From Candidatus Saccharimonadota bacterium (GTDB lineage: Bacteria; Patescibacteriota; Saccharimonadia; CAILAD01; BJGX01), in contig DAOLHK010000002.1 in assembly GCA_035329105.1 (NCBI GenBank), positions 5,557 to 69,556 on the forward strand: 64,000 nucleotides of DNA, written 5' to 3'. The translations under genes and the position numbers were made by a program. Within the stretch, counting starts at the first letter, position 1, and each line of letters begins with the position of its first letter. The notes below the pieces were generated by a model. The model was not told the DNA's origin. It saw only the letters and a list, made by a program, of their open reading frames with translations, and did no database searches. This document shows, piece after piece, positions 1-64,000 of this stretch.

Positions 1-232
1 TGCTAAAACAGCAATAACAGCTATAATATCTACTCCAAATTTTTTATGAAGGATATCGTATAAGATATCTTTTATTTCTGGGATTATTCCTACGACACAA
101 ATGACAATTATGAGCCAATGGCTATATTGTATATTGCCAACCAAATAAAACACCCTGGCTACAAATAAACCTACTAATACAAATATAAGCCAACCATATC
201 TAGATACAAATTTGATAAAATTTTTGCCCATT
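1..232 (-). CDS. N-terminal fragment of a membrane protein; the gene runs off the left edge of the window
   Basis: ATG (reverse complement of 'cat' at 230-232) opens a hydrophobic reading frame (MGKNFIKFVSRYGWLIFVLVGLFVARVFYLV...) that continues to position 1. It is too short for the ORF track. The function is unknown. Confidence 0.3.
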
Positions 233-293
233 TATATCTATGATACAACACTCAAGCATAAAAATTATTATCTAAACTTGGGCTTACTACAAA

Positions 294-2669
294 TTAGCTG
301 GTGCGGACACTTTTTTGATGCAAAATATGTTTTATCCAATAAACTAAAGCATCTGATAGTTTAAAGTGAACGGCTGCTTTTTGTGCAACTGCACCAGCAA
401 GGGCAAATACTATGGCGAAGATAATGTATTTGATAGGTAAGGGCGATATACCGAAAAATCTAGCTATACTTTCATTACTATTAAAGAATATAAGTATCAG
501 AGCTATCACTCCAAATGATCCCAATATAAACATGCTCTGCAGTCGATCCTTTATAACCCCCATAGCTTCTGGTATGAGATATATCGTAAAAATACTCATT
601 ATGACAAAAACACTATATGCAACCATAGCAAGTTGTACTGTACCATTATTAATCACTATGCTTCCGGTATAGTATGTGACTAAAGTAGTAAGTGCGATGA
701 TAGCAGCATTTACTATTGAAAAGGGTAAAGTTCTTTGGAGGAATGGCTTGTCATATATACTTCTGATTCTATTGCGCGGCCAAGCACCCCAAAGTATTAT
801 TGGAAAACCAATAATAAAGAGATTTAGAAGAGTAATATTGCGTGGAGTGAATGGATAATTAATGCCCATCAGTAGAGTACCGAAGATCAAAAAAACACCT
901 GTCCAAACTCTACTAAAAAATAAACTGGCTATCATCTCTAGAGTAGTAATAATACTATCTGACAATTCTATAGCTTTGGGAATAGTTGTAAATGAGTTAT
1001 CTAAAAGCACAATGTCTGCTATTTGCCTGCTTGCAGAAGAGCCAGAAAACATCGCAATACCCACATCTGCCATTTTGATAGCCAATGCATCGTTTGCGCC
1101 ATCTCCCACCATAGCAGTCAAACCTATACTTTGAGATGCTTTTACAATCCTTTCTTTTTGACTAGGAAGTATTCTAGCGAATAAGGGCTGTTTTCGAATG
1201 GCTAGTTTTAGCTCGGATTCTGTCATAGCCTCTACTTGTCCTCCTGTAATCACCTTGTTGCTATGATTGATGCTGGCCCTATCCGCAATTGCACTCACAG
1301 TCTTTGAGCTATCTCCCGAGACGACCAATAGCTGCAAGCCTCTTTTTTGAAGAAATCTTACTACTTCTTTACTAGATTCCTTGAGTGGATTGTCCATTAC
1401 AATGAGCCCTCTTACCTCCATATCTTTTAGGCTTGCAGGATTGTCTAAACTTCCGAGTTTAGCGATAACTACCAACAACACTCTTTGGGCTTGCTTGCTA
1501 TAGAACTTTACCTTGGCTTGGGTCCAATCTTTTTGGCTTTTACTAAGACCAGACAAAAAATATTCACTAGCTCCAATGAATACTTTTTCCTTAGTATCTC
1601 TTACTTCAAAAGCAGCATATTTACGCTCAGAAGAAAATGGTAAGAAATCTGCAATTTTTATGGAATTAGATTTTTTAAATTCTGCCCTGAGCGCTTTGAT
1701 TACTGCAGTTGCTGCTGATTCTTTATAAATATAGGTAGATATTAGATTGACTAGATTGTTTATACCATCTGGATTGTCATGATAGCACTCTAGCTTATCA
1801 AAAATAGGCTTATCCTCAGTAAGCGTACCGGTCTTGTCTAGACAAACAATCGACGCTCTACCTATGTTTTCTATGGCATTGATTTGCTGCAATAATACTT
1901 TTTTTCTACTCATTCTTATAGCTCCATAAGTGAAGAAAACTGTACTGGCTAAGATTAGTCCTTCGGCTATGATAGTAGCTGCAATAGCGGCTATTTGCTT
2001 GATGGCGCTGACTAATGTTTCGGAATTGATAAATGACCTCACCAAGATGATTAGTGCAATTACCACCAGTACTATTGCCATGAGCTGGATAAATTTCAAC
2101 ATACTTTTCTGAATAGGCGATAAGTTGCGTTGATACCTCTTCAAGCTTTGAGTCATAACAGTTATATAGCTTTCACTCTTAGGTTTACGCGCAACTAGTT
2201 TGGCGCTACCAGCCACAATAATGCTCCCGGCTAGCAATGTGTCTCCTACTCGCTTAGATATATTATTAGATTCTCCGCTCAACAAAGCTTCATTGCATTC
2301 GCACATTTCTGAATTTCGAATCACTCCATCTACTGGTACTTGATCACCGAGATTTAGCTGTATTATGTCTCCAGGTTTAATGTCTTCAGAATATACTGTA
2401 TAACTTTTCTTACCTCTTGATATCTTGTACTTCGAAGCTGTTGAGATTTGCAGTTTTTCTAAAGCAATTTTTGAACGAATCTCTTGGATAATCCCGATAA
2501 AAATATTCACAATTATAACTACTGCTAAAAATAGGCCATCTCTTAGATCCCCCAGTATAATTAGAAGTATTGAAAGACCGCCAATTATTACAACGACAAG
2601 TGAGAATATATTGCGCCACAAAATCGGTCCCAGATCTTTTAATAATGACCTAAATAAAGATTTTTTCAT
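294..2669 (-). CDS. cation-transporting P-type ATPase
   Basis: 791 aa. Carries the phosphorylation motif DKTGTLT (CLDKTGTLTEDKP) and the hinge motif GDGANDA (MVGDGANDALAIKMADVGIAM). About 8-10 hydrophobic segments. Confidence 0.85.
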   Translation of the reverse strand: MKKSLFRSLLKDLGPILWRNIFSLVVVIIGGLSILLIILGDLRDGLFLAVVIIVNIFIGIIQEIRSKIALEKLQISTASKYKISRGKKSYTVYSEDIKPGDIIQLNLGDQVPVDGVIRNSEMCECNEALLSGESNNISKRVGDTLLAGSIIVAGSAKLVARKPKSESYITVMTQSLKRYQRNLSPIQKSMLKFIQLMAIVLVVIALIILVRSFINSETLVSAIKQIAAIAATIIAEGLILASTVFFTYGAIRMSRKKVLLQQINAIENIGRASIVCLDKTGTLTEDKPIFDKLECYHDNPDGINNLVNLISTYIYKESAATAVIKALRAEFKKSNSIKIADFLPFSSERKYAAFEVRDTKEKVFIGASEYFLSGLSKSQKDWTQAKVKFYSKQAQRVLLVVIAKLGSLDNPASLKDMEVRGLIVMDNPLKESSKEVVRFLQKRGLQLLVVSGDSSKTVSAIADRASINHSNKVITGGQVEAMTESELKLAIRKQPLFARILPSQKERIVKASQSIGLTAMVGDGANDALAIKMADVGIAMFSGSSASRQIADIVLLDNSFTTIPKAIELSDSIITTLEMIASLFFSRVWTGVFLIFGTLLMGINYPFTPRNITLLNLFIIGFPIILWGAWPRNRIRSIYDKPFLQRTLPFSIVNAAIIALTTLVTYYTGSIVINNGTVQLAMVAYSVFVIMSIFTIYLIPEAMGVIKDRLQSMFILGSFGVIALILIFFNSNESIARFFGISPLPIKYIIFAIVFALAGAVAQKAAVHFKLSDALVYWIKHILHQKSVRTS

Positions 2670-2797
2670 TATGTTTATTATACTACCCTATCATCATAGC
2701 GTTGTTATTTTAATACCTATACTGTGATTTAGATAAATACAGTAAAAGAATCTAAATTTAAAATAAAAACAGATACTGTGTGCAAATGAACCTAGTC

Positions 2798-3349
2798 TTA
2801 AATTTTATTCTCTATCTCCTTACAAAGTATTTCAACAGACTTAAAATACCTTTTTGGTGTAAGTGTCTTTGCTACATCAAAAAGTGGTAGTACTTTGTCT
2901 TTGGTCTCCTGAATCTTTCGTTTGCGCTTCTCTGATGTTACATCTTCTAAGGTTCTAAGATTGTGTAATCTATCTGCCAGCTTACATACCACTGCTCTCC
3001 AAGAGTTGACAGTTGCAAATCTTTGCCAATAATCATCGTCACTCAGACCCTTTTCTTTGCTCATATACTTCACATCCATCGCTACTTCATAACCAAAGTT
3101 GAGTTCTAGTCTTTTGACTCGCATGATAAATGAATCTTCGATAATATCATGCAATAAAGCTGTGCAAATTAATTGCCAATCATAGATATGCAACTCAGAA
3201 AACAAAATCCACGCTACTGCACGTGGATGTTCAAAATATCTTCGACCATCGGCTCTGTTTTGACCTCTATGAGCGTACTTGCTAAAAAAATATGCGGCTT
3301 CTATCTGCTCCATCTCATAATCAGAAAAGTAAGGTTGCATTTGAGCCAT
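2798..3349 (-). CDS. stand-alone HD-domain (p)ppGpp hydrolase (SpoT/RelA-type small alarmone hydrolase)
   Basis: 183 aa. Shows the HRGQ...R..G.PY..HP and LLHDIIED motifs and the LADRLHNLRTL motif typical of the RelA/SpoT hydrolase domain. Confidence 0.7.
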   Translation of the reverse strand: MAQMQPYFSDYEMEQIEAAYFFSKYAHRGQNRADGRRYFEHPRAVAWILFSELHIYDWQLICTALLHDIIEDSFIMRVKRLELNFGYEVAMDVKYMSKEKGLSDDDYWQRFATVNSWRAVVCKLADRLHNLRTLEDVTSEKRKRKIQETKDKVLPLFDVAKTLTPKRYFKSVEILCKEIENKI

Positions 3350-3430
3350 GAACTCATCTCTATTTATTACTAGATAAGGATTGTTATTAGCCAGATAGAC
3401 TCCTCTCTTAATATTGATTGTACAATTATT

Positions 3431-4636
3431 CTACTTATAATATCTACCAATAAAGTCTTTTTTGTACTTATAGAACGACTGATCTTCGATAGATTTACGG
3501 ATATTGTCTACTATGTTGTTGATAAAGAACAGATTATGTATAGTTAGAAGTGTAGCAAATAATATCTCAGATGACTTAATAAGGTGGTGAAGATAAGCTA
3601 GTGAGAAATTCTGGCAGGTGTAGCATTTACAATCTTTATCTATAGGCTCGAACATAGTCCGATAGGAGCTGGTCGAGATATTCTTGCGACCTTCGGGTGT
3701 ATATACAGAACCATTGCGTGCAATGCGTGTTGGACTTACACAGTCAAATGTATCTATCCCATTCTCTATCCCGTCGAAGAGATCAGATGGCTCTCCGATG
3801 CCCAACAAATGTCTAGGCTTTTCTTCAGGCAATTCTTCGCAGACCCACTTTACTGCCGTACCCATATCTGATTTGTTAAAACTTCCCCCTATACCAAATC
3901 CATCAAAATCTAGTTTGGCCAATTCTCTTGCACTAAGCCTTCGTAAATCTTCATGCCTGCCACCCTGCACAACACCAAAAAGACTAATATATGACTTATC
4001 TTTTTTTGATAACTTCTGATGCTCACTTAAACATCTTTTGGCCCATTCATAAGTGCGCCCCCAAGCTCTTCGTTGATATTCATAATCTGCTAGAGGAGAT
4101 GTGCATTCGTCGAATGCAAATATAATATCGGCACCAAGCTTGTGTTGTATTTGCATCGATTTCTCAGGCGTTAGCCGAAGATGTCTACCGTCAATATGCG
4201 AGTAGAAGCTTACACCATCATCATCTATCTTGGCTTTTTTGGCATTGCTTATCCTCTGATCTTGACTATCTTCAAGCATGGCTTCTCCGCTAGTAACTTT
4301 TCCAACTCCCTTACCGAAAGCCGCGCCAAGACTAAATACTTGAAATCCGCCCGAATCAGTATATATAGGACCCTGCCAGTTCATAAACTCATGCAGTCCT
4401 TTTGACTGATATACGATATCTTCACCTGGTCTAAGATACAGATGATAAGTATTTGCTAAGACTGCTTGTGATTTGGTGCTCTTTACTTGCTCCGGTGAGA
4501 GCGCCTTGACTGTGGCAGCTGTACCTACAGTAATAAATGCAGGGGTATTAATGACGCCATGAGGTGTACTTAATATCCCGGTTCTGGCTAATGTACCGTC
4601 TAGTCTTTGATTTAACTTAAAAGTCATTTTTTTCAT
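3431..4636 (-). CDS. tgt: queuine tRNA-ribosyltransferase
   Basis: Canonical TGT N-terminus MKKMTFKLNQRLDGTLARTGILSTPHGVINTPAFI, the DSGGFQ motif, and the C-terminal zinc site CKCYTCQNFSLAYLHHL. The track ORF extends to 4927, but that 97-aa extension overlaps the plus-strand gene at 4737 and has no homology signal. I chose the internal ATG. Confidence 0.8.
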   Translation of the reverse strand: MKKMTFKLNQRLDGTLARTGILSTPHGVINTPAFITVGTAATVKALSPEQVKSTKSQAVLANTYHLYLRPGEDIVYQSKGLHEFMNWQGPIYTDSGGFQVFSLGAAFGKGVGKVTSGEAMLEDSQDQRISNAKKAKIDDDGVSFYSHIDGRHLRLTPEKSMQIQHKLGADIIFAFDECTSPLADYEYQRRAWGRTYEWAKRCLSEHQKLSKKDKSYISLFGVVQGGRHEDLRRLSARELAKLDFDGFGIGGSFNKSDMGTAVKWVCEELPEEKPRHLLGIGEPSDLFDGIENGIDTFDCVSPTRIARNGSVYTPEGRKNISTSSYRTMFEPIDKDCKCYTCQNFSLAYLHHLIKSSEILFATLLTIHNLFFINNIVDNIRKSIEDQSFYKYKKDFIGRYYK

Positions 4637-4736
4637 ATAAGGTATTATATAGTATCCTAGTTCAATAATATTTGCAGCATAACAATCTTTTGGTTTATAC
4701 TTAAAACAAATAACTAATTTAGGAGTTTTAAGTAAG

Positions 4737-5276
4737 ATGGATTCAAGCGTAGTATCAATTAGTAGAAGTTCACTATTATTAAGGGGCCTGGTAAATGTAA
4801 TCTTTGGAGCAATAGTATTTTCGTGGCCAGGATTGACGGTATACCTTCTTGTCATATTATTTGCAATTAATATTATTGTCATCGGAGCCATGGAATTGTT
4901 TAAGCCATTCGTCCAAAAAAATACCAATCACGCAATTTTAACTTTCTTACTAGGATTACTTGGTATGGTAGTTGGATTTTACTTACTAGGCAGACCAGAA
5001 CTTACAGTAGAAGTACTAAGTCTAGTTATTGCATTCTGGGCAGTCCTGTTTGGTATAAGTGACTTGTTTGTCGGATTTGCAGACTCTAAGACTAGCGGTG
5101 GCTATAGATTTTTATTCGTAATCGTAGGTATACTTTCACTGATGTTCGGTGGATATCTCATATTTTACCCAGTTGCTACCTTAGTATCATTTGTATGGAT
5201 ACTTGGTCTGTACGCAATAATTACTGGTGCTATGTATATAGTCGGTAGTTTTTTCATGCCAAAAGCAAAGAAATAG
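4737..5276 (+). CDS. HdeD/DUF308-like integral membrane protein (paralog 1)
   Basis: 179 aa, 6 TM segments, with the repeated W-P-G-L-T-V-Y motif pattern. Tandem paralog of the next gene. Confidence 0.5.
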   Translation: MDSSVVSISRSSLLLRGLVNVIFGAIVFSWPGLTVYLLVILFAINIIVIGAMELFKPFVQKNTNHAILTFLLGLLGMVVGFYLLGRPELTVEVLSLVIAFWAVLFGISDLFVGFADSKTSGGYRFLFVIVGILSLMFGGYLIFYPVATLVSFVWILGLYAIITGAMYIVGSFFMPKAKK

Positions 5277-5295
5277 CAACTATTTATCCTAAGCT

Positions 5296-5856
5296 ATGGA
5301 ACTACTACTTACACCTTCAAGGAGTGCTTTGGCATGGAGAGGCTTGTCGAATGCATTGCTTGGAATAATACTACTGGCCTGGCCACAAATCACTGTTTAT
5401 GTAGTAATCCTATTCTTTTCTTTAAACCTTATTATTGTCGGGTTGTACTCAGTAATTGAACCACTTTTCAATAAGCGTAATCCTCATGCTATTATGTCTA
5501 TAGCGCTAGGCATACTAGGAGTGACTTTTGGTGTCTACTTGATAATCAGGCCTGAGTTCGCAGCTGGGCTAGTTGGTTTGCTACTTTCTTTCTGGGCATT
5601 GTTGTTTGGTATATTTGACATATCTGTTAGTGTCAAAGCCTTGAAGCTCAAGCTCCACTTTGCTTGGGTCTATCTGCTTATAGGTATTGTATCTGTATTG
5701 TTCGGCCTATTCATGCTATTAAACCCCGTGAGTGGAGTACTTACAATAGTATGGTTGTTTGGTCTGTATGCTATGATTATAGGTATCACACTTCTTCTAA
5801 TGGGTATTCTCATGAGGCCTGTGAGTATAAAAGCTAAATCAGGAGTAAAAAAATGA
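5296..5856 (+). CDS. HdeD/DUF308-like integral membrane protein (paralog 2)
   Basis: 186 aa. Clearly alignable with the 4737 gene (LAWRGLSNALLGIILLAWPQITVYVVILF versus LLLRGLVNVIFGAIVFSWPGLTVYLLVILF). Confidence 0.5.
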   Translation: MELLLTPSRSALAWRGLSNALLGIILLAWPQITVYVVILFFSLNLIIVGLYSVIEPLFNKRNPHAIMSIALGILGVTFGVYLIIRPEFAAGLVGLLLSFWALLFGIFDISVSVKALKLKLHFAWVYLLIGIVSVLFGLFMLLNPVSGVLTIVWLFGLYAMIIGITLLLMGILMRPVSIKAKSGVKK

Positions 5857-6821
5857 GTCCAACTAAGTCACGCAATACTCAACCAAATAAATGGTTAGTA
5901 AGAATAGCTATAATACTACTGTGTATAAGTATTTTTTTACTACCATATCTAACTGTTACTAAGTCTCTGATAACAAATGCGCAAAATACCATCAATCTGC
6001 TCAAGAAAGCCAAAACATTTGAGTACACCGCAGAAATTGCAAAAAGCGAAATTCAAAGTAGACTACCTGAGAAAGTCAAACAAAACCTGATAGAACAATC
6101 TATTATCAATAAGATAGTGGATGTCATCATTACCCCCCAATTGATTCAAAATATCTCAGAACCAGCTATCAAACTAGCAATAAAACAACTACAAGAAGAC
6201 CCCAAGCTGAGCTTAGATAATCAAAAGATTGAACTCGATGTAGTGCCTTACAAGCAAAATCTCGGTAATTATGTATCTTCTCTAGGATTGCCGGATGGTA
6301 TCAAGGAATCTGCCAATAATTTCTCCCAATCTCTGCCTGACAAAATAGCAATAGTAGATATAGACAAGAACCCTAATAACCCATTGTTAATACTTATAAA
6401 GCTAAGAAGGCTGTACAACAACATCTTGCTTGCAAACAATATACTCTGGGTAGTTCTAGCGATTAGTGCCCTCTCACTGGTGGCGCTGTTGTATAAAAAT
6501 GTCTTGCGACTAGGTAAGCTAGTAGGCAAATCCTTGGTAGTAGTAGGTATTATAGTGATAATTTTTAGCTATTTAACACCACCTGCATTGAGCTTATTTG
6601 TACCAAATAACCTCACAGAATCAAGTGGCTCAGAGGTAGCAGCACTAATCAACGAGCTTGATACGCAATACTTTGCTATGACACAAGTATATGGCTGGTG
6701 GTATATTGGAATTGGCGCAATCATACTACTGATAGTCTGGTATATCAGAAACTTTGGTTTCAAATTTGACATCAAAGAACTAAAGCATTACTTCAAGATC
6801 AAATTTAAACAAAATAAATAG
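5853..6821 (+). CDS. hypothetical membrane protein
   Basis: 322 aa. N-terminal signal anchor and C-terminal TM segments. Shares an ATGA overlap with the upstream gene. Confidence 0.4.
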   Translation: MSPTKSRNTQPNKWLVRIAIILLCISIFLLPYLTVTKSLITNAQNTINLLKKAKTFEYTAEIAKSEIQSRLPEKVKQNLIEQSIINKIVDVIITPQLIQNISEPAIKLAIKQLQEDPKLSLDNQKIELDVVPYKQNLGNYVSSLGLPDGIKESANNFSQSLPDKIAIVDIDKNPNNPLLILIKLRRLYNNILLANNILWVVLAISALSLVALLYKNVLRLGKLVGKSLVVVGIIVIIFSYLTPPALSLFVPNNLTESSGSEVAALINELDTQYFAMTQVYGWWYIGIGAIILLIVWYIRNFGFKFDIKELKHYFKIKFKQNK

Positions 6822-6878
6822 AAATTTGATTTCATGGTATAATATAGATAAGTAAAAAATAAGTAAAGGAGTCAAAAA

Positions 6879-7277
6879 ATGGCAAAAAATAATAACGTAT
6901 CAAGTATGGTGGGTTGGTCCGTTTTTGCCGGAGTACTGATGGTACTTGGCGGTATGTTCCAAGCAATCGTGGGACTCATGGCAATCGCCAAAGATCAAGT
7001 CTACTTTGTAGGACCCTATACAATTGCATCATTAGACATTACACAATGGGGATGGGTGCATCTTATTGTAGCTCTACTCGTAATGTTGGCTGGATTTTCA
7101 GTACTTAAAGGCAATATGTATGGTCGAGTAGTCGGTGTATTGCTAGCTATGATCAGCGCAGTAGTAAATATGCTATTCTTGCCTGCATATCCCATATGGT
7201 CGTTGATAGTAATCGTAATTGATATAGTCATCATCTACTCACTAATAGTTTATGGGGGCGAGCTCAAAGAAGCCTAA
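6879..7277 (+). CDS. small 4-TM membrane protein
   Basis: 132 aa and hydrophobic. A rho-independent terminator follows it. Confidence 0.4.
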   Translation: MAKNNNVSSMVGWSVFAGVLMVLGGMFQAIVGLMAIAKDQVYFVGPYTIASLDITQWGWVHLIVALLVMLAGFSVLKGNMYGRVVGVLLAMISAVVNMLFLPAYPIWSLIVIVIDIVIIYSLIVYGGELKEA

Positions 7278-7298
7278 TGCTGTAGCCTATCTTCTAGA

Positions 7299-7327
7299 AA
7301 CACCTCTTATCAAAGAGGTGTTTTTTG
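7299..7327 (+). terminator. rho-independent terminator
   Basis: aaacacctctt-atca-aagaggtgtttttt: a 9-bp GC-containing stem followed by a T-run. Confidence 0.6.
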
Positions 7328-7385
7328 TTTGCTAAAATTCATTGCTGTATATATTTATGCCCTTAAAAGAGTTATAATTGTCCAC

Positions 7386-8522
7386 ATGACATTAACAAGT
7401 AAAATTTTTGCTACTATCAATAGAATAATGCCAAAAAGAAATAAGGGAATTGTTCCACCTGAGGCAGAGAAAGAGGTAGGATACATACTAGAAGATATGA
7501 GATCTAAGGTGTTTTTTGGTATTGTATTTTTCATACTTGGGGTCTTGCTTTTTATCACCCTAAGACCATATCTGAGTGCCGTTGTACTAGCTATACTCGT
7601 AGCTGCACTTATCCACCCTATATATGTACGCATGCAACGTAAACTCAAATGGTCGCCAAGAATTATCACTGGCATAATTGTAGTAGTATTATTGTTGATA
7701 GCCATAGGTCTAGTGTTTTTCATCGGTCGTACTCTAGTGCAAGAGGCAATATCATTGAGTAGCTCAATCAATGAATACATCAATAGTGGCCAGGTGGTAG
7801 AATTGCAAAATAAGATACAAGAGTCACTCAAACTCAATGGAGTTGAAGGACAAGATATCGGTAGATTTACTACCTCTATCTTGCAACAGGCTAGCGGACA
7901 ACTTGCAAATTTTGCTGCGGGATTTATTCAGAATAGTTTTGCATTCTTTGTCAGTGTGACTATATTTTTGGCAGGACTAGTGCTTCTAATCCCTCGAATG
8001 AGCAGTATCAAGAAGATGGCTGTAGATATTTCTCCGCTCGGACCAACGATTACTAGAGACTATATTGATAAGACTAGATTGCTACTAAGAGGAGCTGTAG
8101 TGGGGTCATTCTTTATCAGCCTCACAGCGTCTACGCTTATGGGCATTACATTTTGGCTCCTTGGGGTTGAGAATGCAATGTTATTTACTGTACTGGCTTT
8201 CTTCCTGGGCTTTATTCCCTACTTAGGTACTACAATATTTACATTTGGTGCAGCAATAATTTTTGCACTTATGGGTGATTATACTAGTGCAATTATTATA
8301 CTTCTCTTGCAGCTTCTGATCCTAAATCAGCTAGATTTAGTCTTCCGACCGATTTCTATGCCCAAAAAGGTACGCATTCACCCAGCTCTCATGATAATTG
8401 CAGTACTTGCGGGGATAGCGAGTTTTGGTATGATAGGTATAATCTTCGGACCAACTATACTGGTGCTATTTATTAGTTCAATTCAAATATATCAACAAAA
8501 TTACGGCAATGATGTAAGCTAA
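7386..8522 (+). CDS. AI-2E family (PerM/UPF0118) transporter
   Basis: About 8 TM segments and the conserved GFIPYLGTTIF motif region. The track start at 7329 would overlap the terminator, so the true start is uncertain; 7386 and 7428 are alternatives. Confidence 0.6.
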   Translation: MTLTSKIFATINRIMPKRNKGIVPPEAEKEVGYILEDMRSKVFFGIVFFILGVLLFITLRPYLSAVVLAILVAALIHPIYVRMQRKLKWSPRIITGIIVVVLLLIAIGLVFFIGRTLVQEAISLSSSINEYINSGQVVELQNKIQESLKLNGVEGQDIGRFTTSILQQASGQLANFAAGFIQNSFAFFVSVTIFLAGLVLLIPRMSSIKKMAVDISPLGPTITRDYIDKTRLLLRGAVVGSFFISLTASTLMGITFWLLGVENAMLFTVLAFFLGFIPYLGTTIFTFGAAIIFALMGDYTSAIIILLLQLLILNQLDLVFRPISMPKKVRIHPALMIIAVLAGIASFGMIGIIFGPTILVLFISSIQIYQQNYGNDVS

Positions 8523-9292: not shown

Positions 9293-9321
9293 TTGACATT
9301 AACGGCATAAGCGTGTATCAT
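9293..9321 (+). promoter_or_regulatory. sigma-70-like promoter (TTGACA - 17 nt - TATCAT)
   Basis: Consensus -35 hexamer at 9293-9298, a 17-nt spacer, and a -10 hexamer at 9316-9321. It points toward the GNAT gene. Confidence 0.45.
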
Positions 9322-9461
9322 ACGATGTGCTATGAATCAAATTAGCCATACAACTCCAAATTCATCAAACCATTATCTTGTACGTAAACAAGGTTGGTTT
9401 ATGTTTGCTATGGCTCATTTGCACTCTCGATAGTTTTTTAATTTTTTATTATACGCAATGA

Positions 9462-9488
9462 GCCTCCGAAACGGAGGCATTTTTGATT
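9462..9488 (+). terminator. intrinsic-terminator-like hairpin inside the GNAT leader (possible attenuator or sRNA 3' end)
   Basis: gcctccg-aaac-cggaggc followed by atttttgatt. Confidence 0.45.
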
Positions 9489-9551
9489 CAAAAAACGCAC
9501 ATTTTACATTGTTGTAAACCTGTTTCTGAGGCTCTTTGGGTGTAATAACCC

Positions 9552-9572
9552 CTAGACAATGACCTTGTCTAG
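9552..9572 (+). promoter_or_regulatory. perfect 8-bp inverted repeat (ctagacaa-N5-ttgtctag), operator-like, 25 nt upstream of the GNAT start
   Basis: The palindrome is visible directly in the sequence. Confidence 0.35.
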
Positions 9573-9596
9573 CCCTCTACAGAAAAGAGTGAGACC

Positions 9597-10262
9597 ATGT
9601 TTGGTTTCCCCATGCGCACCATCACAGATAAGGGTGCTCACATCGTCATGAGGCCTTATCGGCCGGATGAGATGGAGCAAGTTGCAAAACTCATCTCTAG
9701 CTACAGGATAGCTCGTACACTCAGCTTGACCGGCTCACAAACTGTTCAGCAAGAACAGGGCTGGTTCGAGCATATCAGTACATCGCAAGATAGTGTGCAT
9801 TGGGCTATCTGCTGGGCAACTGATGAGCGTGATACGACTGGTATTCCTATCGGCACCTCTGTGCTCGAAAATGTGCGAGGCTTGAGAGCCACAAGCGGAG
9901 TGGTGATTTATGACCCCACCGCTTGGAGCCAAGGTATTGCAACGGCTGCGCATAAAGCTCGTTGTTACTATGCAGACCATGTAATGGGTCTCAATGCTAT
10001 TGATAGCGATGCACTACGCAGTAATCGGGGTAGCATCAATGCACTGTGTCGAGTCGGCTACCAGATCGTAGGCACTCGATACGGCATGCACCACCTGGAT
10101 GGCCATACTGAACACCTCGAGCTACTCTTGTGGGTAAACCCAAATGAACGCAACTGGAACTACTTCTGGGGTGACAGCGATGTTCCTCAAAAGTTCATTG
10201 GTAGCCGTAAGCTCGCTCGCAAGGCTCTTGACTGGGCTGCTGAGAATGTAACGCTTCTGTAG
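9597..10262 (+). CDS. GNAT family N-acetyltransferase (foreign, moderately GC-rich gene)
   Basis: 221 aa. The GNAT motif A region reads WSQGIATAAHKARCYYADHVMGLNAIDSDALRSNRGSINALCRVGYQIVG. GC is visibly higher than the flanks. Confidence 0.7.
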   Translation: MFGFPMRTITDKGAHIVMRPYRPDEMEQVAKLISSYRIARTLSLTGSQTVQQEQGWFEHISTSQDSVHWAICWATDERDTTGIPIGTSVLENVRGLRATSGVVIYDPTAWSQGIATAAHKARCYYADHVMGLNAIDSDALRSNRGSINALCRVGYQIVGTRYGMHHLDGHTEHLELLLWVNPNERNWNYFWGDSDVPQKFIGSRKLARKALDWAAENVTLL

Positions 10263-10394
10263 AGAATTGGCTCTTTGACTTCGGAAATTTCTGAAGTTAA
10301 GGAGCCTTTCTCATATTAATCAATCGCTTAAGAGTCTAGGATTAATGTCATCATATTTTCCAAGAATAATAATACTATTTATATTAATAAAATA

Positions 10395-20525: not shown

Positions 20526-20580
20526 ATCTATATTGTACCGATTTTTTGTGATTATTCATATTGTATTGGGTCCGAGCGCG

Positions 20581-20618
20581 CCCCGGACTACAGCGATGTG
20601 CGGCGCTGTAGTCCGGGG
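20581..20618 (-). promoter_or_regulatory. perfect 15-bp GC-rich hairpin (ccccggactacagcg-N8-cgctgtagtccgggg) in the leuS 5' leader
   Basis: The perfect palindrome is visible in the sequence. It lies about 55 nt upstream of the leuS ATG and has no following U-run. Confidence 0.5.
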
Positions 20619-20694
20619 CAGTGCCCGCAAGGGAACTTGATAGATAAAAGTCTTGGGATCGCCTCAACTCTTATCTAGCTTCTTTGTCTACACC

Positions 20695-20859
20695 TCAGGC
20701 GTAAGGGATGGCGCCGTCGGGATGAGACGAAGAGGGGTAAGTCGAAGGGACCGGCTTGTCACCACCAACCTTCGAGGTGACAGTGCCTGCTTGATCAATC
20801 ATCACCGTGATGACTGGCTCGGCATCCGGGTAGACATCTTTTACTTGGTCTTGGGCCAT
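20695..20859 (-). CDS. small GC-rich ORF (54 aa) with a consensus AGGAGG Shine-Dalgarno
   Basis: Minus strand reads aagcAGGAGGcaccATGgcc. Product: MAQDQVKDVYPDAEPVITVMIDQAGTVTSKVGGDKPVPSTYPSSSHPDGAIPYA. Confidence 0.35.
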   Translation of the reverse strand: MAQDQVKDVYPDAEPVITVMIDQAGTVTSKVGGDKPVPSTYPSSSHPDGAIPYA

Positions 20860-20950
20860 GGTGCCTCCTGCTTGGTTCCGGATGTTGTGGTACGGATTGT
20901 TCCCCATTTCGGCCTTATACTCTTGTAGGAGTTCAAGACCGATTTCGGAC

Positions 20951-20979
20951 AACAAAAAACCGCCGATTGATTTCGACGG
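20951..20979 (-). terminator. rho-independent terminator (minus strand) ending the upstream transcript
   Basis: Minus-strand RNA: ccgucga-aaucaa-ucggcgg followed by uuuuuuguug. Confidence 0.5.
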
Positions 20980-21108
20980 TTGAGTTTACGTATATTGGTT
21001 ATTTTAACGTAGCGAAATCCCAACCGTCTTCGGCAATAGTAGTACGAGCAGGTTGAGGATGTTTCGTTTCATAGTGTTAATCTACACTTGTTGTATATAC
21101 TTGTCAAA

Positions 21109-22160: not shown

Positions 22161-22340
22161 TTAGTCGGACTCATACTGCTCATCAGGCCTAAAGATCATG
22201 GCGTGCTTGGCTCTAGTTAATTCATCTCGAGATAGTGGCTTTCCATCTGATGATTCTGGTCTCAATCTCAGGCGATTGAGCTGCAAGAAAAAAGCAAATG
22301 CCGATGGATGACCGGTACTGGGGCGCGGTGCATCACTCAT
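22161..22340 (-). CDS. small ORF (59 aa) translationally coupled to the upstream gene through an ATGA overlap
   Basis: Product MSDAPRPSTGHPSAFAFFLQLNRLRLRPESSDGKPLSRDELTRAKHAMIFRPDEQYESD. Absent from the track because it is under 60 aa. Confidence 0.35.
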   Translation of the reverse strand: MSDAPRPSTGHPSAFAFFLQLNRLRLRPESSDGKPLSRDELTRAKHAMIFRPDEQYESD

Positions 22341-22620
22341 GATTTACTATCTCCCTCTGGTCGCATTCGGATAGTTACATCCAATCTCACTGTCTGGGTG
22401 CTCTGCTCTACATCTTTTGGTTCTTCTTCAGAAGCCCATTTCCTTGCTAGTTCTGCCAGCGACTCAGCAGCTTCTGCGAAAGCCAAAAGCTCTGCGCGCT
22501 TGTCTGGGTCCTTTGGTAGCCCTACGACTACTTGATATTGCCCAGACACTGATCCAGGATCGGTTCCGTTTGCTGCTACGCAACGGCTGGGGTTATCGGG
22601 AGTCGGTGTTTTCTTCACCA
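22337..22620 (-). CDS. hypothetical small protein (first gene of a two-gene module)
   Basis: Start taken at the ATG at 22620 (MVKKTPTPDN...); the track start at 22648 is a TTG. Sits in a moderately GC-rich patch. Confidence 0.4.
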
Positions 22621-22705
22621 TGATGTTGTCCTGTCTTGTTTTGTCCAAGGTGCGATTGTTTGACTTTTCGATCCACTATACTAGTCAATGGATCGATTTA
22701 GTAAA

Positions 22706-29231: not shown

Positions 29232-29520
29232 AATCTTTTTACTAATACAGTTCTCCCTCCGTCATATGACGGACATCTACGGCTTATCTGTCTCTCGATA
29301 TAAATATCGAGACAAGGAACTTCGACCTGAAGTTATTATTAATATTCCCTAATCTGATAAGTTTGTCGTAGGAACTCTTACTTAAATAAATTTCAATTTA
29401 CCAGGTCAAAAACAGCCTGATTGGTATTTATTAAAGTAAGTGTACGCCCCATATAGTAGCACGTGGAAAAATCGTGGTCAAGGAGGTAATTTTGCTTATA
29501 TACAGGTAAAATATAGTGTT

Positions 29521-58576: not shown

Positions 58577-58716
58577 TTTTCCCCTCTAAAGTTATTTATA
58601 ATATATACTATACAATAATTGTTATGTTGGCAGCAAGCAAATGTTGAGTAATACCTGATATTGTGATATTATGCTATCTGTTAAACGCCTACAATAGGCC
58701 AATAAACTCAGCTGAT

Positions 58717-58791
58717 GGTCCCATCGTCTAGTGGTTAGGACACCAGGTTTTCATCCTGGCAACAGGGGTTCGACTCCCCTTGGGATCACCA
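58717..58791 (+). tRNA. tRNA-Glu (anticodon TTC), CCA encoded
   Basis: Folds by hand. Acceptor GGTCCCA/TGGGATC. Anticodon loop TTTTCAT. T-loop TTCGACT. Confidence 0.9.
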
Positions 58792-58811
58792 ACTGAGTTT
58801 ATCTACGTTTT

Positions 58812-58888
58812 GGCCCCGTCGTCTAGTGGCCTAGGACATCAGGTTCTCATCCTGAAGATCGCGGGTTCGAATCCCGCCGGGGTCACCA
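58812..58888 (+). tRNA. tRNA-Glu (anticodon CTC), CCA encoded
   Basis: Acceptor GGCCCCG/CGGGGTC. Anticodon loop TTCTCAT. T-loop TTCGAAT. Confidence 0.85.
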
Positions 58889-59005
58889 ATAGGATTTATT
58901 GTTTCACATAGTTATGTCAATAACTATTGATTATTTGTTACAATTGTGCTATTATATAGCCCTTGGTCGCAACCGCGACCTTGTACCCGAATAGAAAGAG
59001 CAATC

Positions 59006-59581
59006 ATGGACCTCAAGAAAGTCCACGGCGTGAACGTCCTCCGGATGTTCATGGACTGGTTCGAAGATGAGTTTTACGAAGAGTTCTACCAGCGCTTCCC
59101 CGACAAGGGGATGACGCTCGTCGTACTCGACTCGGACAACCTCATCGATCTCCAGCAGAACTGGCGCCACCCACAGGGCTTCGAGATGATCGTCGCCCAC
59201 ATCGGCGATGAGGCGATCGCCATCGCCGCGAACGGCACCTACGAGAACGTGAAGGGCAAGTTGCGCTTCGTGCTCCGCACCGGCATGGACTCGGTGATGG
59301 CCGAGACTCGGCAGGACTTCGTGCGACCGGGCGATTTCCCGTGGGAAGGTGCTGGCGAGCACGAGGGCTACATCGGTGGTGTCTCCGGACTCGCCAAGGA
59401 AGAAGACTGGGAGATGTACTGCAAGTGCGTCGACAAGCTCATCGAGCTGCTCAAGAAGGTCATCTCCAGGGCGATGGAGCGAAGCAACCAGCTGCGCAAG
59501 CTCCCCGACTGCCCCCACGGAGCCAAGTACATGTACGCCATCGATGTGTCGGATATGTTCCCCGACTACTCCGCCGCCTGA
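59006..59581 (+). CDS. hypothetical protein encoded by a strongly GC-rich (about 60%) foreign gene
   Basis: 191 aa starting at ATG 59006 (MDLKKVHGVNVLRMFMDWFEDEF...). Third-position G/C codon bias throughout. An intrinsic terminator follows immediately. Confidence 0.6.
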   Translation: MDLKKVHGVNVLRMFMDWFEDEFYEEFYQRFPDKGMTLVVLDSDNLIDLQQNWRHPQGFEMIVAHIGDEAIAIAANGTYENVKGKLRFVLRTGMDSVMAETRQDFVRPGDFPWEGAGEHEGYIGGVSGLAKEEDWEMYCKCVDKLIELLKKVISRAMERSNQLRKLPDCPHGAKYMYAIDVSDMFPDYSAA

Positions 59582-59601
59582 TCCTCGATCCACTGGGCCT
59601 C

Positions 59602-59647
59602 GAGCCCCGACTAGAGTCCCCGACTCTGGTCGGGGCTCTTTTCGTTT
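59602..59647 (+). terminator. rho-independent terminator
   Basis: gagccccgac-N17-gtcggggctc followed by ttttcgttt. Confidence 0.7.
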
Positions 59648-59690
59648 ATCACTATTATATATATGCACATTATTTTGCTAAAATAGTCCT

Positions 59691-60299
59691 ATGACCAACA
59701 AAAACAACTATGCATTTTTAGATAAGATATTTCCTTGGGTACTTACGATAGGTGGATCTATTGGCCTACTAGTATCTTTTGTATTGACCCTAGAAAAGAT
59801 ACAATTACTTATCAAACCCGCATATGTAGCTAGTTGCAATCTCAGCCCCATACTTAGTTGTACGAGTATCATGAAGTCCACTCAAGCAGGACTGTTTGGA
59901 TTTCCCAATCCGCTGATAGGCATTGCAGGATTTGCGGTGGTCATCACTATCGGTGTAGGTATGTTAGCTGGTGCCAAATACAAGCGATGGTTCATGCTTG
60001 GACTATTGCTCGGTAGTTTGCTAGGTGTGGTGTTTGTACATTGGCTATTCTATGAGAGTGTATTTGTGATAGGTGCTTTGTGTGCTTATTGTATGGTGGT
60101 ATGGACTGTGACCATCCCGATATTTCTCTACACTACTTTGTACAATTTGAGAAATGACAATATTCGATATCCAAAACAATGCAGCAAATTTGTAGAGTTC
60201 TTGCAACGCCAACACTTCAATATATTATTCGTGTGGTATGGCATACTCTTTGCGACAATAGTCGCTAAATTCTGGAGTTATTTCAAAACTTTGATATAA
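59691..60299 (+). CDS. vitamin K epoxide reductase (VKOR) family membrane protein
   Basis: Loop cysteines SCNLSPILSC and a TM CxxC (CAYC). Four to five TM segments. Confidence 0.65.
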   Translation: MTNKNNYAFLDKIFPWVLTIGGSIGLLVSFVLTLEKIQLLIKPAYVASCNLSPILSCTSIMKSTQAGLFGFPNPLIGIAGFAVVITIGVGMLAGAKYKRWFMLGLLLGSLLGVVFVHWLFYESVFVIGALCAYCMVVWTVTIPIFLYTTLYNLRNDNIRYPKQCSKFVEFLQRQHFNILFVWYGILFATIVAKFWSYFKTLI

Positions 60300-60330
60300 T
60301 TTCCTACTCCTATCGTGCTAAAATAAATAC

Positions 60331-61530: not shown

Positions 61531-61539
61531 TAGATATAT

Positions 61540-61830
61540 TTATGATTGTTGTTCTTTTAATAGTTTTAAGTTGGCTTTTACCAATTGCCATTGAGCATCA
61601 CGAAAGTATTGTGGCGTATCTCTACGGTCAATTTGTACCAGCATATCAAAAATATCTGAAAATATTTTACTATATTCATCCCCTTCATTGTATTTACCAA
61701 AGTTGGGGCTAGAAGAAGCTCTTATCATATCTGCAGATATTTTTGATTCATTCTTAGAGTTTAAATCTTTTATCAAATCTTGCCAGTATTTTATAAAGTC
61801 GTTTAGTGTTTTTAATTCTTTAGGTTTCAT
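61540..61830 (-). CDS. hypothetical small cytoplasmic protein
   Basis: 96 aa. Member of a tandem trio of small genes. Confidence 0.4.
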   Translation of the reverse strand: MKPKELKTLNDFIKYWQDLIKDLNSKNESKISADMIRASSSPNFGKYNEGDEYSKIFSDIFDMLVQIDRRDTPQYFRDAQWQLVKANLKLLKEQQS

Positions 61831-61872
61831 ATTATTTTCTTATATGGTTGCTAGTACTGAAAGTTGATTTAT

Positions 61873-62175
61873 TTATAAATACCTCGTTTGGAGAGTGTGT
61901 AGTAAGTCATCGATTTTAGCCCAATCTTCTTCTCTTTGTGTCATAGTACCATTTGGTATTTCCAGCCCTCCAGCAATGCTTATCAGATTATCAAGCTCTT
62001 TATCCTTGCAAAGATCATCACTATTTTCTAATGAGTAAATAGTTACAATTTGATAAGCAACTTTAGAATCTTGCTCTATAGAAGCGTCTGGTTTGCGACT
62101 TTTTATAAGATTAGATATAAAAGCAATTACTTCTTTTATATTTGGTGTATTTGAATTGAGAGTGTAATTTTTCAT
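61873..62175 (-). CDS. hypothetical small cytoplasmic protein
   Basis: 100 aa. Confidence 0.4.
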   Translation of the reverse strand: MKNYTLNSNTPNIKEVIAFISNLIKSRKPDASIEQDSKVAYQIVTIYSLENSDDLCKDKELDNLISIAGGLEIPNGTMTQREEDWAKIDDLLHTLQTRYL

Positions 62176-62268
62176 TTTTACATATTAGACTAGTTTCTGT
62201 TTCTTGAGTGATATTAATAACTATCAATTTTTGCACAAAACAGTGCCTATATATATTTCCTTAGCTCA

Positions 62269-62610
62269 TTATTCATATTTTTCTTTTTCTTCTTCAATCC
62301 AGGTATTCAATCTTTGCCATCTATAATCCAATTCATCATCTTCAAACCTATCTGGCAATTCAAGCTCACCAGCATCAAGCGAAATTGATTCAATTCCTGG
62401 ATTTGTATCTACCGACTTGTACCACATAGTGTCAGCAATCAAAAAGGCTGCTTCTTGTCGTGTTATAGTACCCTTGTCTGCTAGATTAATTAGTTCGGTG
62501 TAATACTCAAGAACAGAGCTGGGATCTTCGGCTAGTTGGGTTTCAGAAAATCTATCCCTTACAATTCTAGACCTTTCAATTGCACCTTGAAAGTCTTCTG
62601 TCATTATCAA
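62269..62610 (-). CDS. hypothetical small acidic protein
   Basis: 113 aa. Confidence 0.4.
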   Translation of the reverse strand: MIMTEDFQGAIERSRIVRDRFSETQLAEDPSSVLEYYTELINLADKGTITRQEAAFLIADTMWYKSVDTNPGIESISLDAGELELPDRFEDDELDYRWQRLNTWIEEEKEKYE

Positions 62611-62699
62611 TTCTCCTTTAAGATATGATTGCTGAAGAGCCAGTTTTACTACATGGCTCAGGTTATTGTTAGATCAAGTAGCGCAGGTTTGCAGCCCTG

Positions 62700-62885
62700 T
62701 TACTTGATCTGGTCAGTGGTGATCTCGCTGCCGTCCGTGTCTCGGCCGTAGACAAAGTTGCCGTCTTCATCATGGGCGATGTGCCCATGTGGAGCACCCT
62801 TGTCGGTTGAACCGAAGTAGGTATCGGTCTGTGCCTTGCCGGTGTCTTTGCTCTCACTGGAGTTGGTATTGGTAAACCATCCCAT
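62700..62885 (-). CDS. small hydrophilic protein (61 aa) in a GC-elevated patch, with a strong RBS
   Basis: AAAGGAG lies 6-7 nt before the ATG. Product MGWFTNTNSSESKDTGKAQTDTYFGSTDKGAPHGHIAHDEDGNFVYGRDTDGSEITTDQIK. A hairpin follows the stop. Confidence 0.4.
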   Translation of the reverse strand: MGWFTNTNSSESKDTGKAQTDTYFGSTDKGAPHGHIAHDEDGNFVYGRDTDGSEITTDQIK

Positions 62886-63086
62886 GGCTTTCTCCTTTCG
62901 AGTCTGCCATTTGTCAGGTCTTTGGGCTTTGGATAGGTGCATCGTGGTTAATTTGGTTTATCGTACTTGCCAAATACGAGTTTGCCAAAAAGCAAAAGCA
63001 CCTCTTAAGATATAACTTACATATCTCTCAAGGTACGGTTGCTCCAGATACTAGGAGTATAGGTTAAACACGAGTTTTTGTAAAGC

Positions 63087-64000
63087 TCAGGACTTTGAAG
63101 TAGCAGCAACCTTAGCGCCTATCTTGCGGCTTTGTGCTTCTACAGTCTTGGGTACACCGCTGATAGGTAGAGTAAATCCAAATGTACTTCCCTTGCCCTC
63201 TACACTCTCAAATATCAATTTGCCACCCTCATCTTGTACGACTCTTTTTACTAGGTATAGACCCAGCCCAGTACCATCGGGGCGGAGTTCTTTGGCGTTG
63301 TTGGCTCGAAACATCTTGGTAAAAAGTTTATTTTGTACTTTGACTGGTACACCTATACCATTGTCTTTGACGATGAAGACCACATGGTCCCCGTCTAGCT
63401 CAAAGCTTACATTTACCTCACCTCCGCCTTTTGGTGGCTGAGAGTAGTGGATGGCATTGTCTACAAGATTCATGATGACTTGTCGAGTCTTGTTTTCATC
63501 CAATCTTATCTCGGGTATCTTTTCTTTGGGCGATATATAGTTGAGCTTCACATCTTTGCTCTCGGCTATACTTTGTAGTTGAGTTATTTCTTCTGCCACT
63601 ACTTTTGTCATATCGACATCAGCTACTTCTAAGAAAAACCTGTTGGCATCCATACGACTGACATTGAGTAGATCATCGATAAGGCGTGCCATACGATTGG
63701 CACCATCCAGAGCAAGCTGCACTGGTTCTCTCTGCTCTTTGGAGAGCTTACCAAAATCACCTTCATCGAGCATACTAGCATATCCCTTGACTGTGGTGAG
63801 CGGTGTACGGAGCTGATGAGATGCCATAGATATGAATTCGTCCTTGGCTTGATCTAGTATTTTGAGTTGATCATTGGCATTCTTGAGCTGAGCGGTACGC
63901 TGACGAACTCTTTCAGCTAGGGTCTCACTGAATAGCTGTATTTCTTTATAGCTCAAGGCATTTTGCACTGCCACACTCAACTCACTACCGATGACCTCTA
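63087..64000 (-). CDS. sensor histidine kinase (HisKA plus HATPase_c); the 5' end lies beyond the window
   Basis: H-box SHQLRTPLTTVKGYASML, G1 box DNGIGVP, G2 box GTGLGLYLVKRVV. The frame stays open to position 64000. Confidence 0.8.
   Translation of the reverse strand, partial: EVIGSELSVAVQNALSYKEIQLFSETLAERVRQRTAQLKNANDQLKILDQAKDEFISMASHQLRTPLTTVKGYASMLDEGDFGKLSKEQREPVQLALDGANRMARLIDDLLNVSRMDANRFFLEVADVDMTKVVAEEITQLQSIAESKDVKLNYISPKEKIPEIRLDENKTRQVIMNLVDNAIHYSQPPKGGGEVNVSFELDGDHVVFIVKDNGIGVPVKVQNKLFTKMFRANNAKELRPDGTGLGLYLVKRVVQDEGGKLIFESVEGKGSTFGFTLPISGVPKTVEAQSRKIGAKVAATSKS

Follow-up and report, generated by a model that had tools for sequence, protein, structure and literature searches.

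We analysed a 64,000-nt stretch (hereafter the window) of contig DAOLHK010000002.1, positions 5,557 to 69,556, from a Saccharibacteria (TM7) metagenome-assembled genome. The analysis concerns five short GC-rich patches (P1 to P5), which an earlier note on this DNA had described as foreign mini-cassettes in an AT-rich genome, and above all P4, a single-gene cassette directly downstream of two tRNA-Glu genes. Saccharibacteria have small, symbiont-type genomes, and the window is ordinary chromosome of an uncultured member of this group. The backbone genes named previously are real: Pfam confirmed leuS, alaS, metG, enolase, pyruvate kinase (PK), triose-phosphate isomerase (TIM), phosphoglycerate kinase (PGK) and pyrophosphatase (PPase), as well as rpsP-KH-trmD, SMC, obg, an ftsA-like gene and tgt, and ARAGORN found three tRNAs. 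Relatives were picked up through LeuS, and the loci and contigs compared with the window are numbered L001 to L083; the nearest other species in the genome collection, all Saccharibacteria, have LeuS proteins that are 81% (L019) and 63-65% (L001-L003) identical to that of the window. In what we regard as an evenly balanced judgement, the patches are mostly long-resident accessory cassettes shared with related Saccharibacteria, and the GC-richness of P4 is maintained, most likely via its mRNA. The features discussed are collected in Table 1.

Table 1. Features of the window. GC3, GC content at third codon positions; z refers to GC3, with the value in brackets corrected for the sampling error of short genes; aa, amino acids; ORF, open reading frame.
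Feature	Position	Strand	Composition	Remarks
P1 promoter-like site	9293-9321	+		TTGACA-17-TATCAT, 11/12 matches
P1 candidate leader ORF	9332-9433	+		33 aa, MNQISHTTPNSSNHYLVRKQGWFMFAMAHLHSR
P1 attenuator segment 1	9344-9350	+		AGCCATA, in leader ORF
P1 attenuator segment 2	9409-9422	+		TATGGCTCATTTGC, in leader ORF
P1 attenuator segment 3	9455-9464	+		GCAATGAGCC, overlaps terminator 5' arm
P1 leader intrinsic terminator	9462-9478	+		GCCTCCG-AAA-CGGAGGC, T-run to 9484
P1 GC bump	9561-10310		GC 0.50
P1 gene	9597-10262	+	GC 0.51, GC3 0.514, z 3.2 (2.7)	GNAT acetyltransferase, 221 aa
Intrinsic terminator after P1 gene	10269-10306	+
P2 GC bump	20511-21010		GC 0.49
Perfect 16-bp GC-rich hairpin	20580-20619			GCCCCGGACTACAGCG / CGCTGTAGTCCGGGGC, no T-run, between P2 stop and leuS start codons
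P2 gene	20695-20859	-	GC3 0.607, z 5.0 (3.1)	54-aa orphan ORF, Shine-Dalgarno AGGAGG
P2 leader intrinsic terminator	20981-20958	-
P2 candidate leader ORF	21072-21004	-		22 aa, hydrophobic, MKRNILNLLVLLLPKTVGISLR
P2 promoter-like site	21107-21079	-		TTGACA-17-TAGATT
P3b gene	22161-22340	-	GC3 0.433, z about 1, not significant	59 aa
P3 GC bump	22261-22660		GC 0.505
P3a gene	22337-22621	-	GC3 0.400, z about 1, not significant	94 aa, overlaps P3b
Unlisted GC-rich stretch	27481-27920			in obg
Unlisted GC-rich stretch	28071-28410			in LysM/CHAP protein gene
Unlisted GC-rich stretch	33531-33990			in ftsA-like gene
tRNA-Glu(UUC) and tRNA-Glu(CUC)	58717-58888	+		directly upstream of P4 cassette
P4 GC bump	58911-59740		GC 0.54
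P4 promoter	58927-58955	+		TTGATT-17-TATTAT, upstream TG (extended -10)
P4 5'-proximal hairpin	58965-58980	+		GGTCGC-AACC-GCGACC
P4 gene	59006-59581	+	GC 0.60, GC3 0.870, z 10.1	191-aa protein, unnamed family
P4 intrinsic terminator	59602-59638	+		17 bp, strong, GAGCCCCGACTAGAGTC-CCC-GACTCTGGTCGGGGCTC, T-run to 59648
P5 GC bump	62611-63010		GC 0.48
P5 gene	62700-62885	-	GC3 0.677, z 6.4 (4.1)	61-aa hydrophilic orphan (80 aa if start is 62942)
P5 promoter-like site	62988-62960	-

The overall GC content of the window is 40.2%, which is only moderately AT-rich, and its genes range from 0.30 to 0.46 GC, so the description of the backbone as uniformly AT-rich was overstated. A sliding scan in 300-nt windows (mean 0.403, standard deviation 0.050; outliers defined as lying above the mean plus two standard deviations) placed all five named patches among the outliers. 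Three stretches that had not been listed exceed the same threshold, all of them within core genes; there the GC lies in codon positions 1 and 2 and GC3 is normal (0.33-0.46), and they reflect protein segments rich in Gly, Ala and Arg. Measured against 50 backbone genes (GC3 0.352±0.051, maximum 0.466), P4 (58959-59651) is extreme, P1, P2 and P5 are moderately atypical, and P3 is not an outlier. Tetranucleotide distances, judged against windows of the same size, gave z values of 12.1 for P4 (rank 1 of 168), 3.9 for P2, 3.7 for P1, 2.0 for P5 and 1.4 for P3, while the dinucleotide signature is deviant for P4 only, which ranks first, and native-like for P1. The third-position ratio G/(G+A) is 0.84 in P4, 0.63 in P2, 0.59 in P5 and 0.57 in P1, compared to 0.335±0.06 in the backbone. 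These four genes raise both G-ending and C-ending codons, whereas the glycolytic genes raise C/(C+T) only, which argues for a GC-type bias and a GC-rich origin rather than ordinary translational selection. The patches are therefore a mixed set of one dramatic outlier, three moderate ones and one non-outlier: the GC enrichment that had been claimed for them stands for all five, and the atypical composition, by GC3, tetranucleotides and codon usage, strongly for P4 and moderately for P1, P2 and P5, but P3 is ordinary at synonymous sites. The claim that each patch carries its own expression signals stands in part, since intrinsic terminators occur at P1, P2, P3 and P4 and promoter-like sites at P1, P2, P4 and P5, but the counts of promoter-like sites in the patch regions are not clearly above those in shuffled sequence.

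The P4 gene starts 118 nt downstream of the tRNA-Glu pair, and its GC-rich block extends from the predicted transcription start to the terminator, making up a single-gene unit in which the codons CTC, GCC, GGC, AAG, GAG and ATC dominate. The locus was recovered in 24 independent contigs, and among nine strain contigs P4 showed no single-nucleotide polymorphism. Several candidate readings of its ends were rejected. The 10-nt direct repeat CTATTATATA is no target-site duplication, as it consists of two promoter -10 boxes conserved in all lineages. The 3' hairpin is no integron attC site, since it is without the R''/R' core sites (RYYYAAC ... GTTRRRY), is followed by a T-run and belongs to a gene with its own promoter. 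The short hairpin CCCCGACTYYGGTCGGGGCT is no specific mobile element, being a generic terminator found in 19 unrelated viral contigs; only the extended 42-nt version of the P4 terminator is specific to the cassette. The P4 protein has no match in Pfam, NCBIfam or PHROGs. AlphaFold, given the family alignment, produced a very confident model (pLDDT 95.3), which Foldseek matched in the PDB to Ybr137w, the haem-binding C-terminal domain of PduO, the formaldehyde sensor EfgA and a DUF336 protein (4clc, 5cx7, 6bws and 2a2l; E 3e-3 to 0.3, TM-score 0.38-0.56, probability 0.69-1.0). The invariant GGVSGL motif of the family aligned to GVSGL of Escherichia coli GlcG (hhalign, weak: E 0.069). None of 30 family members matches PF03928 at E up to 1, and one distant representative reaches it at E 0.004 with 17.6 bits, under the cutoff of 25. 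Guided mainly by the predicted fold, we read P4 as a divergent HbpS/GlcG (DUF336)-like small ligand-binding protein, presumably cytoplasmic.

The P4 family is small: a word-indexed search of 5.8 billion proteins returned 31 matches, and 72 clusters were found among 1.84 billion representatives. The only names attached to homologues are 'Candidatus Saccharibacteria' and 'Patescibacteria group'. No match was found in viral contigs, phage genomes or plasmids, and no homologue that could mark a donor lineage with native composition was found outside Saccharibacteria/Patescibacteria-type contigs, a weak negative, as most matches lack a taxon name. The order PK-TIM-PPase...tRNA-Glu-P4-VKOR-PGK recurs in L059, L060/L061 and L065 (tRNA-Glu being placed where that part of the contig was recovered), with P4 identities to the window of 82%, 76% and 71% and PGK identities of 88%, 96% and 84%. 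The distant L083 keeps the order UvrD...PPase-TIM-PK-two small genes-tRNA-Glu-P4, its proteins being 71% (PK), 66% (TIM), 60% (PGK) and 43% (P4) identical to those of the window. A tRNA-Glu gene adjoins the P4 homologue in L065, L083 and L057. Judged by this synteny, P4 has been at its locus since before the divergence of lineages whose glycolytic enzymes are 60-71% identical.

The GC-richness of P4 persists along with its position. In L059, L060/L061, L065 and L083 its GC3 is 0.83, 0.74, 0.83 and 0.82, compared to 0.34-0.40 in neighbouring genes, and in five further contexts the values for P4 and its neighbours are 0.93/0.62, 0.92/0.67, 0.86/0.59, 0.88/0.58 and 0.66/0.33. Across twelve contexts the GC3 of P4 relatives spans 0.62-0.93 and that of the background 0.33-0.68; the homologue is no clear outlier in L057 (0.62/0.67, directly after tRNA-Glu) or L064 (0.79/0.68). 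Between the window and L059, substitutions per synonymous site (dS) are saturated in the flanks (1.7-1.9) and stand at 0.39 in P4, and neither P4 copy has a GC3 below 0.83. Over such a distance a neutral foreign signature would be expected to decay, and that of P4 has not; a single import that fades with time is thus no explanation. The noncoding ends are conserved as well. The 5' hairpin and the extended terminator are kept in the syntenic cassettes, the terminator being nearly invariant; L083, whose P4 protein is only 43% identical, has the same stem arms (GGTCGC/GCGACC), a loop with one base changed and an identical terminator core. A short 5'-proximal hairpin is predicted in most of eleven P4 5' untranslated regions, partly from different sequence. 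The extended 42-nt terminator also follows the P4 homologues of the non-syntenic, higher-GC L056 and L064, the latter with a hairpin variant.

Three further observations come from relatives. In L083, a second extended P4-type terminator (AAGCCCTGATATGAGTCCCCGACTCCGGTCGGGGCTTCTTTC; 10195-10260) follows the neighbouring 143-aa gene, and the element may have been reused or have spread locally. In L069, whose genome has about 50% GC, a GC-rich islet lies right after the tmRNA gene (3974-7700) and contains a 375-aa ORF (GC3 0.78), a 206-aa ORF (GC3 0.92) and a P4 homologue (GC3 0.88). In L059, just past the region that matches the end of the window, there is a GC-rich accessory gene (5711-6301; 196 aa, weak FeeM-like match, local GC 0.51-0.56 versus 0.41), so GC-rich accessory genes recur in this clade.

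Comparison with the closest relatives pointed to exchange of alleles. The flanks of P4 in the window are closest to L060 (95-96%), while P4 itself is closer to L059, at 82% against 76%, although the L059 flanks are only 88% identical. Relative to L060, nonsynonymous substitutions per site (dN) reach 0.14 in P4 and 0.02 in the flanks. Along the window-L060 identity profile, P4 lies at 79-87%, VKOR and PGK at about 91%, and 62.1-63.0 kb, which includes P5, at 99-100%. The tract of about 1 kb around P5 (61950-63000) is 97-100% identical to L060, with an abrupt fall to 79% at 62997-63146, and looks like a recent recombination tract between lineages. In L060/L061, an integrated element with a serine recombinase, a type I restriction-modification system and an HTH_17/MerR excisionase-like gene occupies positions 1-7900, directly upstream of the P4 orthologue; tRNA-Glu was not found in that region. 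From these identity profiles it appears that gene flow is ongoing, and that its visible partners are other Saccharibacteria.

P1 holds a GNAT gene preceded by a candidate attenuator. The protein passes Pfam Acetyltransf_3 (E 1e-13, 52.5 bits versus a cutoff of 25.4), and its model superposes on RimJ, SpeG and a lasso-peptide acetyltransferase (Foldseek E about 1e-9, probability 1.0 to many GNATs), at only 11-18% identity to solved enzymes. About ten relatives, all of 221 aa, form the subfamily, with no named member outside Saccharibacteria-type contigs. The order SfLAP-GNAT-...-trmD-KH-rpsP is kept in L019 (53% GNAT identity) and L072 (74%), where the orthologues are also moderately GC-rich. 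Searches for phage and plasmid relatives gave no match, PHROGs returning a generic acetyltransferase alone. Homology and synteny thus identify P1 as an old resident GNAT of the predicted RimJ/SpeG type.

The 370-nt spacer upstream of this gene has 81% mean identity with long invariant blocks, while the GNAT proteins are just 53% identical, and it is far better conserved than the surrounding proteins. The -35 hexamer is conserved in a three-genome alignment (A4), and the leader ORF is in frame in four genomes, namely the window, L072, L019 and the non-syntenic L073. Within segment 2, GGCTCATTTGC (9412-9422) has two alternative partners, the upstream segment (AGCCATA/TATGGCT) or segment 3. Helix 1:2 is 96% paired, and the antiterminator helix 2:3 comprises 10 pairs, with 97.5% of the alignment cells paired and two compensatory pairs in the four sequences. 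Slid controls reached 27-50%, and 27 of 500 shuffles attained the observed pairing, which lends modest support; the 2:3 duplex has a predicted energy of -15.6 kcal/mol, as low as which only 5 of 1000 shuffles came. The P1 leader is therefore read, from these pairings, as probably a leader-peptide transcription attenuator in which segment 2:3 pairing would act as the antiterminator. The leader peptide has no run of regulatory codons, and Rfam (E up to 1) detected no T-box or other known RNA upstream of the GNAT gene or in the P2-leuS spacer. The roughly 115 nt from the leader terminator to the GNAT start codon (9479-9596) are almost invariant in three genomes and include a hairpin (CTAGACAA-TGACC-TTGTCTAG) near the ribosome-binding site; this element may be a second, translational control element.

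P2, annotated as hypothetical protein HMS91921.1, appears to be built like P1, with a candidate leader-peptide attenuator of its own: the leader contains a segment, AGACGGTTGGG, whose sequence is complementary to that of the terminator's 5' arm (-17.5 kcal/mol, matched by 0 of 1000 shuffles; a single sequence). Its arrangement is identical in all strain contigs, and its junctions recur in 17 independent contigs, but L019 lacks both P2 and the 315-aa gene beside it. A 465-aa membrane protein listed in the same 90% identity cluster (P0045, P0046) is unrelated, a clustering glitch of the protein collection. Between P2 and leuS, the perfect hairpin at 20580-20619 has an arm that resembles the P4 terminator arm (GCCCCGACTAGAG), and several short public contigs stop near it.

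No family in Pfam, NCBIfam or PHROGs was found for P2, P3a, P3b or P5. P3 is a conserved pair of small genes whose GC comes from amino-acid content and is confined to codon positions 1 and 2. At the syntenic locus of L019 there is a P3a homologue (34% identity) of normal GC, followed by a short ORF with a similar C-terminal tail. P5 is missing from the next species, and the search of 5.8 billion proteins returned no relative of it beyond its own cluster. It is adjoined by the lowest-GC stretch of the window (61540-62610, minus strand), which holds three AT-rich genes of 96, 100 and 113 aa (GC 0.30-0.37, GC3 0.22-0.27); strain contigs L047 and L050 lack the 113-aa gene (about 62152-62627), and the 96-aa gene has a 46% identical homologue in L059. 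Elsewhere in the window, a weak match to the Rfam lysM-TM7 RNA motif (29253-29373, minus strand; 32 bits versus a gathering score of 61.5, E 0.054) sits exactly upstream of the LysM/CHAP gene (28059-29231), a position that fits the known context of that family.

To account for these findings, we propose that the composition of P4 was probably foreign at first, and that its GC-richness would now be kept by selection on the transcript, through mRNA stability or expression, because the GC-rich block coincides with the transcript, from its predicted start to the terminator, with stabilising hairpins at both ends. Now and then, homologous recombination through the conserved flanks would exchange P4 alleles among Saccharibacteria lineages, and expression of P1, and likewise of P2, would be controlled by leader-peptide attenuators. 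In its boldest form, which we put forward tentatively, this would make P4 a gene-specific 'composition island', bounded exactly by its conserved 5' stem-loop and terminator, where a GC3 of 0.74-0.93 is itself a conserved and selected trait, retained over very long periods in hosts whose GC3 is 0.33-0.68, rather than a footprint of transfer. Several points weigh against our proposal. The argument for transcript selection draws on two things only, the sharp edges of the block and a composition that has not ameliorated. In its coding region P4 is no more structured than shuffles (z -1.6), so that GC content and the two end hairpins would have to supply any effect on stability by themselves; the idea of excess RNA structure within the coding sequence was rejected, the whole-transcript z of -5 coming from the end hairpins. 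In this genome rpsP favours A and T at third positions (GC3 0.25), hence GC-rich codons are no general expression signal here. The incongruence with L060 shows that replacement happens, and repeated re-import alone could keep the GC of P4 high. The HbpS/GlcG assignment is weak at the sequence level, as the Pfam and hhalign results show; most P4-bearing contigs were assigned taxonomically through their gene content and two names in databases rather than through a marker phylogeny; and the attenuators are supported by four P1 sequences and a single P2 sequence.

The best-surviving alternative, which we consider possible if somewhat unlikely, takes up that point about replacement. It holds that P4, perhaps along with P1, P2 and P5, has been replaced repeatedly from an unsampled and very GC-rich pool through conserved flanks (tRNA-Glu, promoter, terminator), so that its GC never gets time to decay and selection on composition is unnecessary. 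It would account for the incongruence between P4 alleles and their flanks, for a P4 dS that lies below that of the flanks against L059 and above it against L060, and for both G- and C-ending codons being raised, as a GC mutational bias would do. The integrated island directly upstream of P4 in L060 and L061, the P4 relative in the GC-rich island after the tmRNA gene of L069, the near-identical extended terminator in the non-syntenic L056 and L064, and the 99-100% identity tract around P5 all point the same way. However, no sampled host is as GC-rich as the gene, the top background GC3 being 0.68 against 0.86-0.93, and the tiny family, with its 72 clusters, has no named member outside Saccharibacteria/Patescibacteria and no match in viral contigs, phages or plasmids. 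The cassette is also without an integrase, its flanking repeat is the pair of -10 boxes described above, and P4 identity (82%, 71%, 43%) broadly follows that of PGK (88%, 84%, 60%).

The earlier note had instead suggested ongoing gene acquisition, plausibly from a high-GC partner organism. Taken as recent import from such a partner, which might be the actinobacterial host of the epibiont, this reading seems improbable. Cultured Saccharibacteria do live on Actinobacteria, P4 has a codon usage like that of high-GC bacteria and adjoins tRNA genes, and the best structural match of the P1 GNAT is an actinomycete enzyme, though at 17% identity. The nearest other species lacks P5 as well as P2 with its 315-aa neighbour, and it is mainly for P2 and P5 that import from a host is possible. 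Yet P1, P3 and P4 keep their loci across species in which the dS of the flanks is saturated, and this synteny speaks against ongoing acquisition and largely refutes host import for these three; the P1 dinucleotide signature is native-like and P3 is not atypical at synonymous sites. No donor was found either: searches of 5.8 and 1.84 billion proteins gave no actinobacterial or other homologue of P4, P1 or P5 from outside the Candidate Phyla Radiation. The expectation that the patches would encode lineage-specific genes was borne out, with orphans at P2 and P5, an unnamed family at P4 and a narrow GNAT subfamily at P1. Finally, that nothing is foreign and the bumps arise from amino-acid composition, short-gene noise or chimeric assembly holds for P3 and the three unlisted bumps only, where the excess GC stems from codon positions 1 and 2, and is otherwise hardly credible: P5 is so short that its tetranucleotide z is just 2.0, but the GC3 z of P1, P2 and P5 is still 2.7-4.1 after sampling correction, P4 refutes it outright (GC3 z 10, tetranucleotide z 12), and junctions recurring in 24 (P4) and 17 (P2) independent contigs exclude a chimera.

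Compositional outliers are routinely read as recent horizontal gene transfer. P4 has the full foreign signature, yet stays at one locus without amelioration, which means either gene-specific selection on composition or a hidden GC-rich pool that refreshes the gene; both would be informative for epibionts that are hard to culture. If P4 is indeed a composition island kept by mRNA selection, this advises caution against reading every outlier as recent transfer. The genome as a mosaic with small accessory cassettes is ordinary as a general statement. The analysis provides a protein family that is unnamed, and whose named members all belong to Saccharibacteria/Patescibacteria, with a confident structural model, and adds two candidate leader-peptide attenuators before accessory genes, one of them (P1) with comparative support. 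To our knowledge almost no regulatory RNA is known in the phylum, and such attenuators would be direct handles on regulation.

With respect to known systems, P4 differs from an integron gene cassette in having its own promoter and terminator-like T-run and no attC core sites. It resembles the acquired islands that adjoin tRNA or tmRNA genes in being a sharp outlier in GC, codon and oligonucleotide usage directly after tRNA-Glu, with a relative in the islet after tmRNA in L069 and an integrative element at the same spot in L060/L061. Unlike such islands, it is a single gene without integrase or att-type repeats, conserved at one locus over deep divergence, not ameliorated and with no visible donor. 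No integrase or transposase lies in or adjoins any patch in the window, only P4 is adjacent to a tRNA gene, and patchy presence, which would mark a recent island, is seen for P2 (with its 315-aa neighbour) and P5 only, not for P1, P3 and P4. The predicted P4 fold and its GGVSGL motif, compared to GVSGL, recall the HbpS-like/GlcG/DUF336 family (PF03928), but no member of the P4 family reaches the Pfam threshold, and P4 extends the fold by a helix and a strand at its N-terminus and by a long helix at its C-terminus. Likewise, P1 passes the Pfam threshold of RimJ/SpeG-type GNATs and superposes on them, yet it stands apart through its low identity, its narrow 221-aa subfamily and a C-terminal extension. 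The candidate attenuators depart from the trp/his-type operon attenuators and from the erm/cat type, which ribosome stalling induces, in having no regulatory codon run and no Rfam family, in the conserved stretch of about 115 nt before the GNAT start, and in that the gene downstream at P1 is a GNAT and no biosynthetic operon. What they share with them is the order of promoter, short ORF, intrinsic terminator and gene at P1, and apparently at P2, together with mutually exclusive 1:2 / 3:4 versus 2:3 helices, here predicted from sequence.

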